NCBI GenBank assembly: GCA_052033955.1
Contig: JBPOJD010000030.1
Location: 33,679 to 97,678 of the forward strand
Direction of reading: 5' to 3'
DNA: 64,000 bases
Source: Candidatus Hydrogenedentota bacterium
GTDB lineage: Bacteria; Hydrogenedentota; Hydrogenedentia; Hydrogenedentales; SLHB01
The translations under genes and the position numbers were made by a program. Positions 3,447-41,763 of the stretch are shown here, in pieces. The notes under the pieces were generated by a model that did no database searches, was not told the origin of the DNA, and saw only the letters and a program-made list of their open reading frames with translations. The stretch's first letter is position 1. Every line of letters begins with the position of its first letter.

Positions 3447-5444
3447 CTACAGGCCCTCCTCGATCTGGCGCCGCTCCAGGGCCATCAGGCGGTCGCGGTA
3501 CTCGGCGGCCTTCTCGAACTCCATCTTGTCGGCGGCGTCTTTCATCTGCTTGCGCAGCTTCTGCATGGTCTTCTGGAGGTTCTGTCCGGTCAGGTAGAGG
3601 TCGGCGTCCTCGGCGGCCATCGAGACGGTGACGTAATCGCGCTCGTGGATGCTCTGCATGACGTCGGCGATCTTCTTCTGCACGGACCGCGGCGTGATCT
3701 TGTGGGCCTTGTTGTAGGCGAGCTGTTTCTCACGGCGGCGCTTCATCTCGTCGAGCGCGCGCGCCATGGAGCCGGTCGTGGTGTCGGCGTACATGATGAC
3801 GCGGCCGCCCACGTGGCGGGCCGCGCGGCCGCAGGTCTGGATCAGGCTCGTCTGGGACCGCAGATAGCCCTCCTTGTCCGCGTCCAGGATCGCCACGAGC
3901 GACACCTCGGGGATATCGAGCCCCTCCCGCAGCAGGTTGATGCCGACCAGCACGTCGTATTCGCCCTTGCGCAGGCTGCGCATCAGTTCGATGCGTTCGA
4001 GGGTCTCGACGTCCGAGTGCATGTACCGCACGCGGACGCCGAGGTCGGTGTAATACGCGGTGAGGTCCTCGGCCATGCGTTTGGTGAGCGTGGTCACAAG
4101 CACCCGCTCGCCGCGGCCGGCGCGGACGCGGATTTCATCGAGCAAATCATCCACCTGGTTGCCCGCGGGGCGGACCTCGACCTCGGGGTCGACCAGCCCG
4201 GTGGGCCGCACAACCTGCTCCACAATCAACCCCTCGCTCTGCCGCAACTCGTATTCGGCGGGCGTGGCGCTCACGTACAGCCGCCACGTCGCCTTGCGCT
4301 CGAATTCGTCGAACTTCAGCGGCCGGTTGTCCCGTGCGGACGGCAGACGGAACCCGTAATCGACCAACTTGTCCTTGCGCGACCGGTCGCCGCGGTACAT
4401 GGCGCCGATCTGCGGCACGGTGATGTGGCTCTCGTCGATGACGATAAGCGCGTCGTCGGGAAAGTAGTCAATCAGGGTGAAGGGCGGCTCGCCGGGCATG
4501 CGTCCGTCGAGGTGGCGCGAGTAGTTCTCGATGCCGCTGCAGTACCCGAGTTCGCGCATCATCTCGATGTCGTACATCGTGCGCTGTTCGAGACGTTCGG
4601 CGTAGAGCAGCCTGTTGTCGGCGCGCAGCTCGTCCAGCCGCTGGGAGAGTTCCACCTTGATGCCGTCGATGGCATGGAGCAGGACGTCGCGTGTGGTGGC
4701 GTAGTGGGAGCCCGGGTGGATGACGACCCGGCCCATGCGCCGGTGCGTGACCCCGCGCAGCGGGTCGATGGCCGAGATCGCGTCAATCTCATCGCCAAAG
4801 AACTCGACGCGAATCGCCGTGTCCGCCTCGTAGGCGGGGAAGATGTCCACAACGTCGCCGCGCACGCGGAAGGTGCCGCGATGGAAATCAACGTCGTTGC
4901 GGGTGTACTGCATCGCCACGAGGCCCGCGAGTACATCCTCCCGCGACCGCTCGATGCCGGTCTCGAGTTCGAGGCGCAGGCCTTGGTACATCTCGGGCGA
5001 TCCGATGCCGTAGATGCACGATACGCTGGCCACAATAAGGCAGTCGCGCCGCGTCAGCACCGCGCGCGTGGCCGAGTGACGCATCTTGTCGATCTCATCG
5101 TTGATCGACGAGTCTTTCTCGATGTAGGTATCGGTGGTCGGGATGTACGCCTCGGGCTGATAGTAGTCGTAGTAGCTGACAAAGTACTCGACGGCATTCT
5201 CCGGGAAGAGGTCCTTGAACTCCTGGTAGAGCTGGGCGGCGAGGATCTTGTTCGGCGCGATGACGAGCGTGGGCCGGTTCAGCTCGGCGACCACGTTGGC
5301 CACGGTAAAGGTCTTGCCCGAGCCGGTCACGCCCAGCAGGACCTGCTCGCGGATGCCGTCGCGCAGGTTCTGGGCGAGGCTCTCGATGGCCCGGGGCTGG
5401 TCGCCCTGAGGGGTGAAGGTGCTGACGATCCGGAACTGGTCCAT
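3447..5444 (-). CDS. uvrB: Excinuclease ABC subunit B (UvrB).
   Basis: The protein has the helicase motif I 'GVTGSGKTF', the UvrB interaction and beta-hairpin regions, and the C-terminal UVR domain ('[27 protein letters not shown]'). It is 665 aa. Confidence 0.95.
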
Positions 5445-5453
5445 GGCCGCCGC

Positions 5454-7475
5454 TCAGACCTTCGAGCGGCGTTTGACCGAGGTCGTGGCGACCTCGCGAA
5501 CGCCAGGGACCGCACGCAGCGTGCGCAGCACGTGCTCGGTGCTCTCCTCGTCGGACGATTCAAAGACGAAATCGAAGAAGCCGAGGCCGTTGTCCTCCGG
5601 ATGCAGCGTCGCGCGCAGGATGTCGATGTTCATCGGGCGGATGGCGTTGGTGATGTCGGCGAGCACATTGGGCCGCTGCACGATGTTCACGCGCATCGCG
5701 GTCTCGAAGTGGCCCTCGCCTTCCCACGAGGCCTCCATGATGCGCGCGGGATCACGCTTGGTGTTCAGAAAGCTGCGGCAGTCCACACGGTGAACCGTGA
5801 CGCCCGGATTCTTGGTGACATAGCCCAGGACGGGTTCGCCGGGCATCGGGTTGCAGCATTTGCCGAACTGCATCAGCATGTTCTTGGTGCCCTGAATCCG
5901 GATGAGCTTCTGGCGCGTGGCCTCGTCCACCTGGCGCACGACCCGCCGCGGGGCCGGGGGCGCCGGGGCAGGGCGCGGCTTGTCCGGCAGGGCGTCCATG
6001 GGGGACTCGATCGGTTCGAGTTCGCCCATCTCGCGCAGCCGTTGCCGGATCCGGGTGCGGGCGCGGCCCGTCACGACGATATCGAGCCAGCTCAGGTGCG
6101 GGGTCTGGTTCTTGGAGGTCAGGATCTCGACGACATCGCCGGTCTGCAGGTTGTACTTGAGGTTGACCATGCGCCCGTTGGCGCGCGCGCCGATGCAGCG
6201 GTTGCCGACGTCGGAGTGGATGCTGTAGGCAAAATCCAGCGGCGTGGCGCCCGCGGGAAGCTCCTTGACCTCGCCTTTGGGCGTGAACACATACACCTCG
6301 GACGCCCCGAAGTCCCGCCGCACGTTGTCCATCAGCTCCTCGGGGGCGTGGGCGTCCTCGAGCCACTCGTGCATCTGCTGGAGCCACTGCAACTGGCTGT
6401 CCAGTTTCGTGCTGCGCCGGCCGCGCTCGCCTTCCTTGTATTTCCAGTGCGCGGCGATGCCCACCCGCGCCGTGCGGTCCATTTCCTCGGTGCGGATCTG
6501 CACCTCCAGCGGCAGCCCGTTGTCGCGCATGACGGTCGTGTGAATCGACTGGTACATGTTGGCCTTCGGGATCGCGATGTAGTCCTTGAAGCGGCCCGGC
6601 ACCGGCGGCCAGACGTGGTGGACCACGCCCAGCGCGTTGTAGCATCCCGCCACCGTCTGGGTGATGATGCGCAGGGCGAGGATGTCCATGACCTGATCAA
6701 AGCTCTTTCCCTGTGACTGCATCTTCTGGTAGATGCCGTACAGGTGCTTGGGCCGGCCAAACACGCGCGCATTGACCTCGGCCTCGGCGAGCCGCACCTC
6801 GAGGAACTCGATGGTGTCCTGCAGCAGCTCTTCGCGCTCCTTGCGCTTCATGGCCACCTGGCCCGCCATTTCCTTGTACTCTTTCGGGTACAGGTAGTGA
6901 AAGGCGTGGTCTTCCAGCTCCCATTTCCACTGGGCGATACCGAGGCGGTTGGCGAGCGGCGCGTAGATATCGAGCGTCTCGCGGGAAATGCGCTCCACCT
7001 TGGCCGGCGGGAGATAACTGATCGTGCGCATGTTGTGCAGGCGGTCAGCCAGCTTGATCAGGATGACGCGCACGTCCTTGGCCGTGGCGATCAACATCTT
7101 GCGCATGTTGTAGGCTTGTTTTTCGAGATGGGGCTCGGCGGCGTTCGCGCAGGCCAGCGTGCTGATCTTCGTCACGCCGTCCACCAGCGCCGTGACCTCC
7201 TCGCCGACCTCGGCCACCAGTTGCGCCCGCGTCATCTCGGAATCCTCGAGCACGTCGTGCAAGAGGCCCGCCGCGACGGTCTTGATGTCCACACCGAGTG
7301 AACACAGAATCTTCGCGACCGCCATGCTGTGCGAAATGTAGGGTTCCCCGCTCACGCGGACCTGCCCCGAGTGGGCCTTGTTGGCCACCCGGTAGGCGTG
7401 GCGCACCAAGTCATCGTCCCCGTCCGGGAAGGTTTTTCGCACCTGCTTGAGCAGTTTTGCAAATTCTTTGCGCAT
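5454..7475 (-). CDS. rel: Bifunctional (p)ppGpp synthetase/hydrolase (Rel/SpoT family).
   Basis: The domains are an N-terminal HD hydrolase ('GLLHDVLED'), a RelA_SpoT synthetase domain, and TGS and ACT C-terminal domains. It is 673 aa and lies directly upstream of uvrB on the same strand. Confidence 0.93.
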   Translation of the reverse strand: MRKEFAKLLKQVRKTFPDGDDDLVRHAYRVANKAHSGQVRVSGEPYISHSMAVAKILCSLGVDIKTVAAGLLHDVLEDSEMTRAQLVAEVGEEVTALVDGVTKISTLACANAAEPHLEKQAYNMRKMLIATAKDVRVILIKLADRLHNMRTISYLPPAKVERISRETLDIYAPLANRLGIAQWKWELEDHAFHYLYPKEYKEMAGQVAMKRKEREELLQDTIEFLEVRLAEAEVNARVFGRPKHLYGIYQKMQSQGKSFDQVMDILALRIITQTVAGCYNALGVVHHVWPPVPGRFKDYIAIPKANMYQSIHTTVMRDNGLPLEVQIRTEEMDRTARVGIAAHWKYKEGERGRRSTKLDSQLQWLQQMHEWLEDAHAPEELMDNVRRDFGASEVYVFTPKGEVKELPAGATPLDFAYSIHSDVGNRCIGARANGRMVNLKYNLQTGDVVEILTSKNQTPHLSWLDIVVTGRARTRIRQRLREMGELEPIESPMDALPDKPRPAPAPPAPRRVVRQVDEATRQKLIRIQGTKNMLMQFGKCCNPMPGEPVLGYVTKNPGVTVHRVDCRSFLNTKRDPARIMEASWEGEGHFETAMRVNIVQRPNVLADITNAIRPMNIDILRATLHPEDNGLGFFDFVFESSDEESTEHVLRTLRAVPGVREVATTSVKRRSKV

Positions 7476-7594
7476 GGATAGTTACACGTCGGCACGCCGC
7501 CATCGCGGCCGCGCCGGAGGTTCAAGGATATAGTGTACCATGCCGCCCCCGGGCAATCCCAGCGGACCGCGATCCGCCCGGCTGAAGTAATTAC

Positions 7595-7623
7595 TTGCCA
7601 AACGGCTCCAAACTTAGTATATT
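7595..7623 (+). promoter_or_regulatory. Sigma70-type promoter TTGCCA-N17-TATATT for the M23 peptidase gene.
   Basis: The hexamers and spacing are read directly from the sequence. The track ORF 'start' TTG at 7595 is the -35 box, and the real ATG is at 7631. Confidence 0.5.
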
Positions 7624-7630
7624 ACTAGTT

Positions 7631-8191
7631 ATGCGGTGCCAAGCGTTTGTTTCGGCTCCCCAACAGACGGATCGGGACGCCTCAGCTCACCGGCCTGTTC
7701 CGTCGGCCGATCGCCGATGCACGCTGGTATTGCTCGTGGCGCTCATTGTTGGTGGTTGCACCACCATCGGGGACAATGGGCGCCACACTTCTTCCAGTCC
7801 CCCGCAGGGATGGCCCTTGCCGCCCGCCTGCCGACAGGTGACCAGCGCATTCGGGCCGCGCGCCGCCGCAACCGGCGGCCCGAGCCGCCTGCACCAGGGC
7901 ATCGACATCGCGGCCCCAAAAGGGACTCCGGTCCACGCCACCGCGCCCGGCCGGGTGGTCTTCGCGGAGTCATGGGGAGCCTACGGCCGCATCGTGGTGC
8001 TGGATCACGGCAACGGCTACGAAACCCGCTACGCCCACCTGCACCGCATCTCGGCCAAGCCGGGCCGCACCGTGCGCCGCGGCGAGGAGCTTGGGAAGGT
8101 CGGCCGCACCGGGAACGCCACCGGCTACCATCTGCACTATGAAGTGCGTCATCAGGGGCAACCGCTCGACCCCGTGCGCTTTCTTGAGTGA
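7631..8191 (+). CDS. M23 family peptidoglycan metalloendopeptidase, lipoprotein.
   Basis: The C-terminal LytM/M23 domain is present ('GIDIAAPKGTPVHA...GYHLHYEV'). The N-terminal signal peptide has a lipobox-like 'IVGGC'. I moved the start to the ATG at 7631. Confidence 0.85.
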   Translation: MRCQAFVSAPQQTDRDASAHRPVPSADRRCTLVLLVALIVGGCTTIGDNGRHTSSSPPQGWPLPPACRQVTSAFGPRAAATGGPSRLHQGIDIAAPKGTPVHATAPGRVVFAESWGAYGRIVVLDHGNGYETRYAHLHRISAKPGRTVRRGEELGKVGRTGNATGYHLHYEVRHQGQPLDPVRFLE

Positions 8192-9684: not shown

Positions 9685-11037
9685 TTGACGCCGGAAAACC
9701 ACCCGCTCAAAGGCGCGCAGGGAGCGCAGCATATCGGCCACCTCCTGGTGGAGGACGGCCTGATCAGCCAGGACGGGCTCGATCGGGCGCTGGCGGCGCA
9801 GAAGCAGCATCAGGGCAACCTGGTGGACATCCTGATCGCCCAAGGTGCGGTCGATTACCGGACCTTCGCCCAGTTCCTTTCCCGCCAGAAGCGCCAGGCC
9901 AGCATCGAGCTGTCCCGCTACGAACTGCGCCCGGAGGTCATTGCCCTCGTGCCGTCCGCGTTCGCGTTGCAGCACGAAGTCGTGCCGATCGACCGGCTGG
10001 GCAATCTGCTCACCGTCGGCGCCGTCCGCCCGCTGAGTGCCGGCGTCGAGGAGGAGCTGAAGAACCTGACGGACCTGAGCGTCAAGACCCTGTTGTGCGC
10101 GCCGGGCGACGTCCGGAGCGTGATCAAGCGCTACTATGGGGGCGGGGACGCGGTTCCGGCGGCGCGGGCGGACGCCGAGACGGCCGATCTCGAGAGTCCG
10201 CTGCGGTTGGGCGGTGTAGCCCAGTTGCTCCGGCGGCTGGACAGCCTGCCGACCCTGCCCACCACGGTGCAGCGTGTGCGCGAGATGCTTGACGACCCCG
10301 CGGCGGGCGCCGGCGACGTGGCCCGGGTCATCTCGAACGACCCGCCGATCGCCGCCAGACTGCTCAGCGTGGCGAACTCCGCCGCCTACGGCCTGCGCCA
10401 CCACGTCGACACGGTCGGCCTCGCGGTAACCGTGCTGGGACTCAAGGAGACCTACGGACTGGTGCTGTGCACCTCCGTGATTGACCTGCTTCGCGGCAAC
10501 ACGGTCTTCGACTACCGGTCCTTCTGGTTCGAATCGGTGTGTTGCGCCAACATCGCGACCGCCATCGCCCGGCGCTATGCCCGGGAGAAACGGTCCGGGA
10601 TCTTCTCGGCCGGGCTCCTGCACGACATTGGCCGGCTCGCGTTGAGCCAGGTCGCGCCCGAGCACTACGGCCAGATCGACCGTGAACTGCGTGGTCCCCG
10701 GCTCAGGCAGTGCGAGGAGGAGCGGATCGGCATTGCCCACACCGAGGCCGGGTACCAACTGGCCGTCCAGTGGGGCCTGCCGCCCGACATCGCCGAGGCG
10801 ATCCGGTTCCACCACGCCCCCGCGTTCGCCCAGGAGAACCGCGATCTGGTGGCCATGGTGGCGATTGCCGACGCGGTGGCCGTGTCGCAGCGGCCGGGCA
10901 GCGACGACAGACAACCCGATTTCGCGGCCTGCCGGGAGAGTCTGGAGGTGCTGGGCCTGAGCGAGGCAGACGTCATGGAGGTGCTGACGAAGGGCCCGGA
11001 CCACGACGCCGTGGACGTCTTTGTCTCGCCCAATTAG
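9685..11037 (+). CDS. MshEN (GspE/MshE N-terminal, c-di-GMP-binding type) domain fused to an HDOD domain.
   Basis: The N-terminus has two tandem MshEN-like motifs ('IGHLLVEDGLISQDGLDRALAAQ' and 'LVDILIAQGAVDYRTFAQFLSRQ'). The C-terminal ~280 aa match HDOD ('LPTLPTTVQRVREML...', 'GLLHDIGRLAL', 'IAHTEAGYQLAVQWGLP', 'AIRFHH'). Confidence 0.75.
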   Translation: MTPENHPLKGAQGAQHIGHLLVEDGLISQDGLDRALAAQKQHQGNLVDILIAQGAVDYRTFAQFLSRQKRQASIELSRYELRPEVIALVPSAFALQHEVVPIDRLGNLLTVGAVRPLSAGVEEELKNLTDLSVKTLLCAPGDVRSVIKRYYGGGDAVPAARADAETADLESPLRLGGVAQLLRRLDSLPTLPTTVQRVREMLDDPAAGAGDVARVISNDPPIAARLLSVANSAAYGLRHHVDTVGLAVTVLGLKETYGLVLCTSVIDLLRGNTVFDYRSFWFESVCCANIATAIARRYAREKRSGIFSAGLLHDIGRLALSQVAPEHYGQIDRELRGPRLRQCEEERIGIAHTEAGYQLAVQWGLPPDIAEAIRFHHAPAFAQENRDLVAMVAIADAVAVSQRPGSDDRQPDFAACRESLEVLGLSEADVMEVLTKGPDHDAVDVFVSPN

Positions 11038-11079
11038 AGCATGAACCGGGCCAGGCATCGTGTCGCACGGTTTCCGTAC

Positions 11080-11350
11080 GGGCGGGTTTGAAACCCGCCC
11101 CTACAAGACGAGATGCGCAACCCCGTGCCGACGCGTTACAAACCCGCCCCCGCAAAACGAGACGCGTGACCCCGTGCGGACGCGTTACAAACCCGCCCCC
11201 GCAAAACGAGACGCGTGACCCCGTGCCGACGGGCTGCAAACCCGCCCCCGCAAAATGTGACATGCGAACCCTGTAGGGGCGGGTTTCAAACCCGCCCCCG
11301 CGAGGCATAGGAAACCAATCACACATCCGGTTTCAAACCCGCCCCTGCAT
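11080..11350. repeat. Degenerate tandem repeat array of about six copies with a ~49-bp period, flanked by and containing GC-rich palindromes (GGGGCGGGTTT[G/C]AAACCCGCCCC).
   Basis: The core 'AAACCCGCCCC' recurs at 11091, 11140, 11189, 11238, 11288 and 11335. Copies 2 and 3 are nearly identical and the outer copies are diverged. The array lies in the convergent intergenic space between the 9685..11037 (+) gene and the 11369..12049 (-) gene. Confidence 0.8.
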
Positions 11351-11368
11351 CCGGCCTGGCGTGGCCAA

Positions 11369-12013
11369 TCAGGCGGGAGGCACGGCGGTTTCGATGCGGG
11401 TGGGCGACGCCTCGTTCGCGATCTGCTGGAGGTAGCGCAGGCACGCCTCGTCATCCCAACGCGCGCCGCTTTCATAGCGGAAGGCAATCCGGTCATCGGG
11501 CGTGAGGATGAAGGTCGTCGGGGTGCCACGGCCCTTGTACGCCTCGGGACGCGGCCCGGATGCCAGCAAGATGGGTACGGTCAGTCCCTGCTGTTCCACG
11601 ACGGCCCGGATTTCGGTCGTGAACGCCGCCATGTCCTCGTCCTTTTCCTTCTCGGCCACGCACCAGAAGACGACGTCCTCCTCCGCAGCCTTCTCGTAGA
11701 GGTCCTGGATGTGCGGCAGGGTCGCGATGCAGTAGGGACAGTGCGGATGCCAGAAAGTGAGAAAGACCGTCTGTCCCTGAAGCTGCCGCGCGGACACGGG
11801 CTCGCCCGTCTCCAGATCGGTGACGTCCCAGTCGTAGGCGGCGGGCGCATCGGGAAACGCCGGCGCCTTCAGGCGTGCCGCGGCGCGCTTGACAAGAAAC
11901 CGGTAACCGGTGTCCGTGCGGGTCATCCCGACCACCAGCAGCGCCTCCACGAACAGCACCAGCAGCATGCCGGCGACCAGGCCGCAAGCGAAGAGGAGTT
12001 TTGGGCGTTTCAT
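11369..12013 (-). CDS. TlpA/ResA-like membrane-anchored thioredoxin-fold protein with a CPYC active site.
   Basis: The active site reads 'WHPHCPYC', and the N-terminal TM/signal is 'MKRPKLLFACGLVAGMLLVLFV'. The track ORF extends to 12049 with an Arg-rich leader. A start at 12013 is more plausible. Confidence 0.7.
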   Translation of the reverse strand: MKRPKLLFACGLVAGMLLVLFVEALLVVGMTRTDTGYRFLVKRAAARLKAPAFPDAPAAYDWDVTDLETGEPVSARQLQGQTVFLTFWHPHCPYCIATLPHIQDLYEKAAEEDVVFWCVAEKEKDEDMAAFTTEIRAVVEQQGLTVPILLASGPRPEAYKGRGTPTTFILTPDDRIAFRYESGARWDDEACLRYLQQIANEASPTRIETAVPPA

Positions 12014-38908: not shown

Positions 38909-39727
38909 ATGGGTCTTCGTATCAACACCAATGTAGCGGCGCTCAACGCCGGCCGCACCCTGCGGCAATCCACCCACGACCTGAACCGGAGCCTGGAACG
39001 TCTCTCCAGCGGGTTGCGCATCAACCGCGCCGCGGATGACGCCGCCGGACTCGCCATCGCCGAGGGTTTCCGATCCGTCGTCATCGGCGCGCGCGTTGCC
39101 CAGCGCAATGCCCAGGACGGCATCAGCATGGTGCAGACGGCCGAGGGCGCGCTCAGTGAGACCACCAACGCGCTGCAGCGCATCCGCGAGCTGGCCGTGC
39201 AGGCCGCCAACGGCACCCAGAGCGACAGCAACCGGCTTGCCCTGGACGACGAAGTGCAGCAGTTGCTCGCGCAGATCGACGACATCGCTCTGCAGACGGA
39301 GTTCAACGGGTTGTCCGTGCTCAGTTCCTCGCAGACGGTGACCCTTCAGGCCGGGCCGCACGCGGGCCAGACCTTGGCCATCTCGGTAAACGGCGCCAAG
39401 ACCAACGACCTGGGCGTCAACACCGTCACCATCTCGTCCATCGCATCCGCCTCGTCGGCGCTCAAGACCATCGACGACGCGCTCACCAGTGTGACGCGCC
39501 TGCGCAGCGCCTTCGGCGCCTTCCAGAACCGCCTCGAGTTCACCATCAGCACCCTGGCGATTCAGGAACAGAATTCGGCAGCGTCGGAAAGTGCCATCCG
39601 CGATGCCGACATTGCCCGCGAGACCATCCAGTTCACGCGCAACCAGATCCTGGTCAACGCCGGCACCTCGGTGCTGGCCCAGGCCAACGTGGTGCCGCAG
39701 TCGGCGTTGCAGCTCCTCGGCGGATAA
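38909..39727 (+). CDS. fliC: Flagellin.
   Basis: The conserved N-terminus is 'MGLRINTNVAALNAGRTL...LSSGLRINRAADDAAG' and the C-terminus is 'QILVNAGTSVLAQANVVPQSALQLL'. The protein is short, at 272 aa. Confidence 0.9.
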   Translation: MGLRINTNVAALNAGRTLRQSTHDLNRSLERLSSGLRINRAADDAAGLAIAEGFRSVVIGARVAQRNAQDGISMVQTAEGALSETTNALQRIRELAVQAANGTQSDSNRLALDDEVQQLLAQIDDIALQTEFNGLSVLSSSQTVTLQAGPHAGQTLAISVNGAKTNDLGVNTVTISSIASASSALKTIDDALTSVTRLRSAFGAFQNRLEFTISTLAIQEQNSAASESAIRDADIARETIQFTRNQILVNAGTSVLAQANVVPQSALQLLGG

Positions 39728-39885
39728 CGCCGGTCTTGATCCTCGCTCGACAGTGGAATCGCCGCTGCCGGCGCGCCAGCCACTCACGGTCAAACGCGCA
39801 CAATGGGAAGACCGGGGCCGTGGCCCCCGCCGCCGCTCCGCCGGGATACAGTCCGGTTACGTTCGCCGGCAGCGCAGACAGTTAC

Positions 39886-39921
39886 CAGGCGCCTGCCCGT
39901 CCATGATGGGCAGGCGCCTGG
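39886..39921 (+). terminator. Hairpin with a perfect 14-bp stem (CCAGGCGCCTGCCC...GGGCAGGCGCCTGG) downstream of the flagellin gene.
   Basis: The hairpin sits about 160 bp after the flagellin stop and is followed by TGCTTGGTGTG. Confidence 0.5.
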
Positions 39922-40010
39922 TGCTTGGTGTGCGACGAATGAAACCCGCCCGCCGCGTGTTCAAAAGAGACGGCTGCATTTGGGCCGTTGGCCCGCTGTG
40001 AGGCGCTGCA

Positions 40011-40944: not shown

Positions 40945-41763
40945 CTATGGCGCCAGATCCGCTTGGGCAGGGGGCGGCGGCATCTGCTGCATGGGCTCGC
41001 CCTGAACCTCTTGTGCGCCCGGGGGCGGACCCATGGGCTGACCGGGGCCGCCCTGCATGCCTGGTCTGCCCGGACGCGGCCCCATCGGCTGGCCGGGGCC
41101 ACCCTGCATACCTTGTCCACCGGGACGCGGCCCCATCGGCTGATCGGCTCCGCCCTGCATCCTCGGACGCTGGAGACCTGGCCGGTCGCCCTGGGGGCCC
41201 ATCGGCGGCTGCTGGTCCGGGCCGTCCTGCTGGCGGCCGCGCATGCCTTGCCTGCGGGCCTGCTGGGCCATCTGGCGCATCTGGCCTTCGAAATCTTCCA
41301 GGAACACATACAGCCGGGCCTGCTGCGTCGCGGTGAGACCTTGGGACAGCTCGTCAAAGGTCCGCTGGCGGGTCTCAATCATCTGGCGGTCGTGCTGGCG
41401 GATCTTCGCGAGATTCTCCTGGATTACGGCGGCGTCCTTGCCGGCCTGAACGCTGTCACGCAGTGTTTCAAGCAGCGTCTGCCGCTCGGCCCGCAGGGTC
41501 TGCATGGCGTCGCGCGTTTCGGTCACGCGCTGCACCATCGCAACGGTCTGGTCCTTTTCCAGCGCGAGTTCCCGCGCCAACCGCACCATCAGCAGCGTTT
41601 CGACCAGTTCCCGGGTGTCCTTTCCTTCCAGCGGCGCGTCGGGATCGGCGCCCAGCGCGTCCAGTGGTCCGGGCGGCGGCCCGGGCGGCGGCGGCTGCGC
41701 CACGGCCCCGGTTGCCGTGAGGGCCAGGAGCACTATCGTGAGCGTACAGGCGATGATCTTCAT
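40945..41763 (-). CDS. Periplasmic LTXXQ-motif (CpxP/Spy/ZraP-like) protein with a C-terminal Pro/Gly/Gln/Met-rich repeat tail.
   Basis: It has a signal peptide, and the LTXXQ motif is 'QGLTATQQARL'. The C-terminus carries about three ~17-aa repeats 'MQGGPGQPMGPRPGRPG'. Confidence 0.65.
   Translation of the reverse strand: MKIIACTLTIVLLALTATGAVAQPPPPGPPPGPLDALGADPDAPLEGKDTRELVETLLMVRLARELALEKDQTVAMVQRVTETRDAMQTLRAERQTLLETLRDSVQAGKDAAVIQENLAKIRQHDRQMIETRQRTFDELSQGLTATQQARLYVFLEDFEGQMRQMAQQARRQGMRGRQQDGPDQQPPMGPQGDRPGLQRPRMQGGADQPMGPRPGGQGMQGGPGQPMGPRPGRPGMQGGPGQPMGPPPGAQEVQGEPMQQMPPPPAQADLAP
41010..41210 (-). repeat. Roughly 51-bp in-frame tandem repeats encoding the Met/Pro/Gly/Gln-rich tail of the LTXXQ protein.
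   Basis: The repeated DNA block 'CCATCGGCTGGCCGGGGCCACCCTGCAT...' is visible on the plus strand. Coordinates are approximate. Confidence 0.6.

Follow-up and report, generated by a model that had tools for sequence, protein, structure and literature searches.

The repeat array considered here occupies positions 11074–11349 of the window, by which we mean the whole 64,000-nucleotide stretch of the Candidatus Hydrogenedentota genome that was analysed, and consists of six units at a spacing of 47–50 nt. It is bordered by an HDOD-domain protein gene on the plus strand, with its stop at 11037, and by an AhpC-like gene on the minus strand, with its stop at 11369, 20 nt past unit 6 and about 70 nt past REP2. 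The two genes are therefore convergent, as had been stated in the first-pass annotation, an earlier reading of this DNA. The features of the locus are as follows:

9685–11037, plus strand: gene for an MshEN–HDOD–HD protein, the upstream neighbour, with its stop codon 39 nt before REP1
11074–11349, no strand assigned: the whole REP cluster of six units
11076–11104, minus strand: REP1 (unit 1), intact palindrome GTAC-GGGCGGGTTTGAAACCCGCCC-CTAC
11123–11171, plus strand: unit 2, with an intact right arm (AAACCCGCCCC), a decayed left arm (CCGACGCGTTAC) and a 20-nt linker
11172–11220, plus strand: unit 3, identical to unit 2 at 48 of 49 positions
11221–11269, plus strand: unit 4, in which the left arm has decayed (CCGACGGGCTGC) and the linker has diverged
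11273–11298, plus strand: REP2 (unit 5), intact palindrome GTAG-GGGGCGGGTTTCAAACCCGCCCC, with the GTAG foot on the plus strand
11329–11349, plus strand: unit 6, a half REP (GGTTTCAAACCCGCCCCTGCA) consisting of the right arm alone
11369–12013, minus strand: AhpC/redoxin-like gene (214 aa), the downstream neighbour, converging on the array

The description of the locus as a tandem array of six copies with a period of about 49 bp is borne out by Tandem Repeats Finder, which reports 11091–11255 (period 49, 3.4 copies, 90% matches, score 260), and by an ungapped repeat search, in which a 21-nt core recurs six times in register with spacings of 49, 49, 49, 50 and 47 nt. Units 2 and 3 had rightly been singled out as near-identical, although their identity is 98% and not about 96%, with one differing position in the 49-nt register starting at 11123 and 11172. 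The two palindromes, on the other hand, had been placed on either side of copies 1–4, which is wrong, as they are themselves copies 1 and 5 of the array. The segments between the cores are also repeated, at 80–98% identity, and the linker in the interior of the array reads ACGAGACGCGTGACCCCGTGC. Units 2–4 have kept the right arm and a homologous 20-nt linker, and the three to four changes among their 21 palindrome positions (four in unit 2) all fall in the left arm. With both strands counted, the 11-mer AAACCCGCCCC matches the array seven times exactly and once with one mismatch; across the whole window there are ten matches with at most one mismatch, where 1.9 would be expected, and none of 100 shuffles reached ten. 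The full 23-mer palindrome has no occurrence in the window outside the two intact copies (0 expected). We agree with the earlier reading that the ORFs called over 11060–11530 are artefacts.

REPs are short GC-rich hairpin repeats that are thought to be spread by RayT nucleases and are ordinary constituents of bacterial genomes. They are recognised by their defining signature, a GC-rich hairpin with GT[AG]G at its foot (Nunvar 2010; Di Nocera et al. 2013, PMC3733652). Both intact copies in the array have the form of a GTAG-tagged REP, i.e. a GC-rich stem–loop palindrome within the range of 20–40 nt, situated extragenically between convergent genes in the HDOD/AhpC spacer and carrying the conserved foot. 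In REP2 the foot lies on the plus strand, while in REP1 the canonical GTAG lies on the minus strand and the outer foot is a degenerate GTAC. The two copies are perfect reverse complements over 26 nt, lie 166 nt apart and form a tail-to-tail inverted pair with the GTAG feet pointing inward; the consensus of the palindrome is GTAG-GGGCGGGTTT-S-AAACCCGCCC-CTAC.

The stems of REP1 and REP2 are perfect, GC-rich and 10–11 bp long, with GGG/CCC at the base. As RNA, the predicted hairpins have energies of −21 to −24 kcal/mol (REP1) and −25 to −27 kcal/mol (REP2), and as single-stranded DNA −11 to −14 and −13 kcal/mol, respectively. As the inner copies lack the left arm, only the outer two, REP1 and REP2, still fold; for the decayed units the predicted fold is on a par with that of shuffled sequence, which leaves four of the six units without a fold, and unit 6 has no stable hairpin because the right arm alone remains. 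Folding, which had been proposed as a check on the array, thus gives strong structures for REP1 and REP2 (−21 to −27 kcal/mol, z about −4) and unremarkable ones for the decayed units. The region as a whole can be folded into one long hairpin (z −4.1 and −4.7). Elsewhere in the window, 39884–39922 forms a perfect stem of 15 bp closed by a 9-nt loop, with no T-run; a flagellin-like gene (38909–39727) ends about 155 nt upstream of it. A second tandem repeat at 41010–41160 (period 51, three copies, 81% matches) has nothing to do with the REP array. It falls in a 272-aa minus-strand ORF (40945–41763), whose product has three GMQGGPGQPMGPRPG-like repeats there, close to its C-terminus.

The palindrome has a wide distribution in other bacteria. 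A scan for the exact 21-mer GGGCGGGTTTSAAACCCGCCC, with one genome per species, gave at least 120 genome stretches that contain it, and about 20 phyla are represented among them. The matches listed include Chloroflexota (Dehalococcoidia, Anaerolineae), Binatia, Desulfobacterota/Thermodesulfobacteriota, Nitrospirota, Deinococcota (Deinococcus) and Actinomycetota (Rubrobacter), together with Bacillota (Oscillospiraceae), Omnitrophota, Bacteroidota (Lewinella), Gemmatimonadota and Myxococcota. Outside the palindrome, similarity among the 149 listed copies breaks off sharply after four bases, and GTAG before and/or CTAC after the 21-mer was seen in 129 of them (48 on the left only, 48 on the right only and 33 on both sides). 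In variant copies the stem is kept by compensatory changes, 37 two-sided pairs still being Watson–Crick against 5 that are broken, and GGGCAGGTTTSAAACCTGCCC and GGGCGGGTCTNAGACCCGCCC are recurrent compensatory variants. The centre base of the listed copies is G or C irrespective of the side on which the foot lies; a resemblance of the loop GUUUGAAAC to a tRNA T-arm was considered as mimicry and was dropped because of this indifference to foot orientation.

Among the listed copies, 64% lie outside crudely called ORFs, compared with 11.6% of bases. Convergent spacers are enriched (29 of 86, against a background of 22%) and divergent spacers depleted (9 of 86, against 21%), and the same extragenic pattern, with convergent spacers over-represented and divergent ones under-represented, has been reported for REPs in the literature. 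Regular tandem arrays of the REP are present in 14 of the 120 listed loci, with periods of 34, 142, 113 and 128 nt or alternating 43/66 nt, and OZ244869.1 carries seven dispersed copies in four stretches among the matches listed. All-against-all clustering of the 2,842 ORFs from the 120 loci returned generic families only (SDR, ABC transporters, GGT and thiolase) and no gene linked to the palindrome, and the literature search gave no match to the exact DNA strings or to the peptides that they encode.

Near-exact copies of the REP (93–97% over 26–30 nt) also occur on plasmids NC_014502.1, NZ_CP087953.1 and AP024711.1 of the cultured organisms Gloeothece verrucosa PCC 7822, Desulfosarcina sp. 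BuS5 and Leptolinea sp. HRD-7, which could serve as experimental systems. The GTAG-tagged palindrome was further seen on 43 stretches of putative viral contigs from IMG/VR (L130–L172, e.g. L139, L166 and L172), with up to seven copies in 14.5 kb. A family HMM found no RayT gene on these 43 REP-bearing contigs (442 kb).

A connection with a particular kind of RayT became visible when the E. coli RayT protein was used as a phmmer query over the loci, as this returned two Y1_Tnp genes, at L080 and L017, the detection being weak (E 3e-6 and 0.035). The palindrome lies inside both ORFs, directly after the HUH motif, and is read in different frames, encoding RAGLKPAPT in L017 and RRGGFQTRP in L080; what is conserved is therefore the DNA and not the peptide. 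There are 1,617 homologues of the L080 protein, many of which are named ‘REP element-mobilizing transposase RayT’ by JGI. Among the best 120 of these, 64 encode the palindrome in a hypervariable loop after PNHxHGI, as VGAG[LF]KPAPT or RGGF[QE]TRPY. The in-gene palindrome was found at five independent RayT loci, exactly in L124, L125–127, L128 and L080 and with one mismatch in L017, and four of the five have extra copies about 20–320 nt from the gene.

Close homologues of this RayT differ in whether the loop insert is present, absent or duplicated, a variation among sequences that suggests ongoing insertion, excision or slippage in the gene. Partial REP copies in tandem are frequent in the loop that follows the HUH motif (P0002, P0007, P0014, P0072, P0106; L128 10269–10310), examples being 15-nt repeats (VGAGD seven times, KPAPT three times), 21-nt repeats (GLKPAPTGLKPAPT) and arms split by long inserted loops (GRGGS...TRPY). 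The L017 gene (4464–5040) has an in-frame TAA at 4910–4912, behind which the conserved C-terminus (YIIYNPSRW) is still encoded, and may be a pseudogene or reflect a sequencing error; the family palindrome lies about 40 nt upstream of it, and on the downstream side, at about 5075–5098, there is another GTAG hairpin of different sequence (GTAGGAGCGAGGCATGACTCGCCC).

Both the REP and the RayT correspond to a type that has been described, namely TnpA_Y1 subclass 2.4, which is group 4 of the RAYTs of Bertels (PMC6006769, PMC5581495). Quentin et al. 2018 (PMC6006769) reported that subclass 2.4 REPs are long, with three G–C pairs at the base of the stem, that they sometimes have a ‘double foot’ (GT[AG]G...C[TC]AC), that an in-frame REP inside the tnpA_REP gene is unique to this subclass, and that its distribution across phyla is patchy. 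The proteins are characterised by the motifs NH[IFV]H, WQ and YIxNNP and a variable β3–αC insertion (PMC6006769). Bertels et al. 2017 (PMC5581495) found group 4 in 17 bacterial classes, with a median of about 14 occurrences per replicon for the flanking 16-mers. The family recovered here agrees with the subclass 2.4 description in motifs and in its hypervariable loop, since the best 120 of the 1,617 homologues have NHxH in 117, WQ in all 120 and Y[IVL]xxNP in 115 cases (the strict form YIxNNP in 64) together with the variable insertion.

The palindrome itself likewise has the GT[AG]G foot and a long stem resting on three G–C pairs, occurs in the double-foot form, which is optional in the subclass, is patchily distributed across phyla at low copy number per replicon, and has copies inside the RayT ORF at the RayT loci of other genomes. 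These shared traits of group 4 place the palindrome of the window in the described REP type. The array differs from subclass 2.4 systems in that REPs are seen alone, phmmer and the family HMM having found no RayT gene in the 64-kb window, and from the published cases in that Hydrogenedentota is not among the listed host phyla and most of the array copies are decayed half-REPs. We know of no experimental demonstration that REPs of the double-foot type are mobilised by a subclass 2.4 RayT.

While the palindrome is shared by many phyla, the 49-bp unit is not. The collection of metagenome contigs contains no match to the unit-specific pattern, which joins the right arm to the linker. Within the 64 kb of the source genome the palindrome is confined to the array locus, and about 86 kb from five related Hydrogenedentota-like genomes held no copy, the copy number expected for this REP type being low. 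In the relative L122 (79% amino-acid identity) the gene order is the same and the spacer lacks the REP, carrying an unrelated AT-rich insertion instead. On either side of this insertion (7418–7634) lies one copy of a perfect 19-nt direct repeat, a duplication of the AhpC gene's 3′ end, the two copies being 198 nt apart; with an inverted repeat of 28 nt (93% complementarity) inside it, the insertion looks MITE-like on its sequence. The HDOD–AhpC spacer seems to be a recurrent landing site. In a further relative, L123 (68%), the spacer measures 60 nt and another gene is the neighbour.

Comparison among strains may point to recent change within the array. In two short-read assemblies of near-identical strains the spacer equals that of the window minus exactly one 49-nt unit (unit 2 or 3), which may be real copy-number variation or an assembly collapse of the two 98%-identical units. 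Three short-read assemblies of another close strain (L173, L174 and L175) all end 83 nt past the HDOD stop codon, inside the array, and as three independent assemblies stop at the same base, the repeat evidently breaks de Bruijn-graph assembly; this strain differs from the window at four positions after REP1, having CCGC for CTAC in the foot and two changed linker positions. The 49-nt unit being local and its copy number apparently variable, the array is to be read as a local tandem duplication of REP plus linker. Judged from these alignments, it appears to be young and evolutionarily unstable and not a conserved functional locus, and the absence of the REP array from relatives argues against a selected, locus-specific function.

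The suggestion in the first-pass annotation of a REP- or MITE-like element therefore stands for the palindrome, which is a GTAG-tagged REP present in many phyla and tied to RayT, and fails for the 49-bp unit, which is local. Its converse, that a unit occurring only here would be just a local duplication, is in part what was found, because the 49-bp unit as such is local, being absent from the metagenome collection and from the locus of the relative.

Taken together, the array is very probably a cluster of GTAG-tagged REPs of the ‘long’ or ‘double-foot’ kind that belongs to TnpA_Y1 subclass 2.4 (RAYT group 4), amplified by tandem duplication. Going by the biochemistry of the E. coli RayT/REP system, a RayT would have recognised the hairpin and GTAG foot on single-stranded DNA and seeded a REP between the convergent genes. 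The next step, shown by the anatomy of the array and the comparison of strains, was the head-to-tail multiplication of a 49-nt block of REP plus 20-nt linker through slippage or unequal exchange; the four copies besides REP1 and REP2 arose locally, and the inner ones lost their left arms. If transcribed from either gene, the intact hairpins, 39 and about 70 nt past the stop codons, would probably stabilise 3′ ends or cause pausing and would not be canonical terminators. By analogy with what is known of REPs in enterobacteria, a service as 3′-end barriers or pause sites of the two convergent transcripts would be the sole plausible role for REP1 and REP2 at the RNA level.

An intrinsic (Rho-independent) terminator is a GC-rich hairpin followed immediately by a T-run, and one reading of the locus, proposed in the first-pass annotation, is that of a bidirectional terminator cluster in which two hairpins end the convergent transcripts and the repeats exist for that function. 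The location in a convergent spacer, with the hairpins 39 nt and about 70 nt past the stop codons, fits this well, as do the high stability of the two intact hairpins (−21 to −27 kcal/mol, z about −4), the T-runs into which some copies in other genomes lead (L080 4675 and 5094, L007) and the general preference of REPs for convergent and tandem spacers. No T-run follows any hairpin of the array on either strand, however, and the terminator scan was blank over it, whereas the same genome does use canonical terminators, e.g. at 1282–1307, where an 11-bp stem is followed by TTTTT. A canonical terminator role is unsupported because of these missing T-runs; moreover, four of the six units are unfolded, the orthologous spacer of the relative is without the element, and the identity of 29 nt of sequence over about 20 phyla would be left unexplained. 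We therefore regard a terminator cluster as unlikely to be what the array is, and note that a terminator function could accompany REP identity in a secondary role but could not take its place as the explanation.

That the 223-bp segment 11076–11298 moves as a single composite element, REPIN- or MITE-like, appears more improbable still. The terminal pair does form a perfect 26-nt inverted repeat, the region folds into one long hairpin, and REPINs are defined as inverted REP doublets (PMC3116915); the 166-nt interior, by contrast, is made of head-to-tail decayed REP copies with no unique spacer, its specific pattern has no match in the metagenome collection, it is apparently one unit shorter in other strains, and no target-site duplication is visible around 11076–11298. 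The least credible reading, with very little to commend it, is that of a small-RNA gene, which the first-pass annotation had also entertained, or a degenerate CRISPR array, for which the regular spacing, the conserved core and the structured nature of the region could be cited. The array holds no promoter-like site and no Rfam match at the gathering threshold, the hits at E ≤ 1 being narK (0.41) and a tRNA-Sec over REP1 (0.64), both at chance level. A CRISPR array has unique spacers between its repeats and usually cas genes nearby; here the inter-core segments are themselves repeated with a period of 49 nt, as had correctly been pointed out, and the neighbouring genes (HDOD, AhpC, baeRF and a sigma-54 activator) include no adjacent cas genes. 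Lastly, the closest relative has not conserved the element.

Considered against known systems, the cluster of subclass 2.4-type REPs also resembles the GTAG superfamily of Di Nocera et al. 2013 (PMC3733652), which comprises 24 published families and in which the GTAG tag, the GC-rich stem–loop, the extragenic position between convergent ORFs, tail-to-tail dimers with feet inward and tandem reiteration of the REP with flanking DNA all recur. Head-to-tail units, which dominate in the array, were rare in that survey (PMC3733652), and the GTAG-23 family of Chloroflexi encodes AGLRPAP-type peptides that are similar in style to the palindrome and not identical to it (PMC3733652). The E. coli REP/BIME system with its RayT (TnpA_REP, YafM) shares the combination of hairpin and GTAG guide, which an HUH-Y1 nuclease there recognises on single-stranded DNA; it also shares the location at the 3′ ends of genes, where a stabilisation of mRNA has been proposed. 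The E. coli RayT, with DHLH and YIHYNP motifs, belongs to subclass 2.2, in contrast to subclass 2.4 here, and BIMEs differ from the array in their alternating REP orientation, defined linkers and hundreds of copies. REPINs (Bertels and Rainey 2011, PMC3116915) are likewise pairs of inverted REPs able to form a single long hairpin, with a short spacer, and are replicated as a unit at many loci; the interior of the array differs in being made of tandem decayed REPs, and it lacks matches in metagenome contigs.

A wider reading, which we put forward as speculative and by no means the expected outcome, concerns the near-invariance of the REP over about 20 phyla. The REP may be so constant because a master copy rides in frame within the subclass 2.4 RayT gene, with nuclease and substrate making up one horizontally transferable unit; the Hydrogenedentota array would then be a recent seeding, and copying driven by RayT or by the hairpin would have left its half-REP tandem units, like the 15- and 21-nt repeats inside the loops of RayT, as footprints.

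For the window, the main value of these results lies in annotation, where the array is to be recorded as REP debris and not as a regulatory locus, a small RNA or a CRISPR remnant. The REP type and the RayT subclass were already known; the palindrome of the REP type is seen here in Hydrogenedentota, a phylum unlisted for subclass 2.4, and the locus illustrates how REPs of the subclass 2.4 type decay and are amplified locally. The presence of one exact 21–29-nt REP across about 20 phyla, in differing frames inside RayT genes, goes slightly beyond the statements that we found in the literature; this near-invariance across phyla is a property of the REP family and not of the array locus, and merits a systematic look. 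If the wider reading is true, such arrays would be a readable record of RayT activity.
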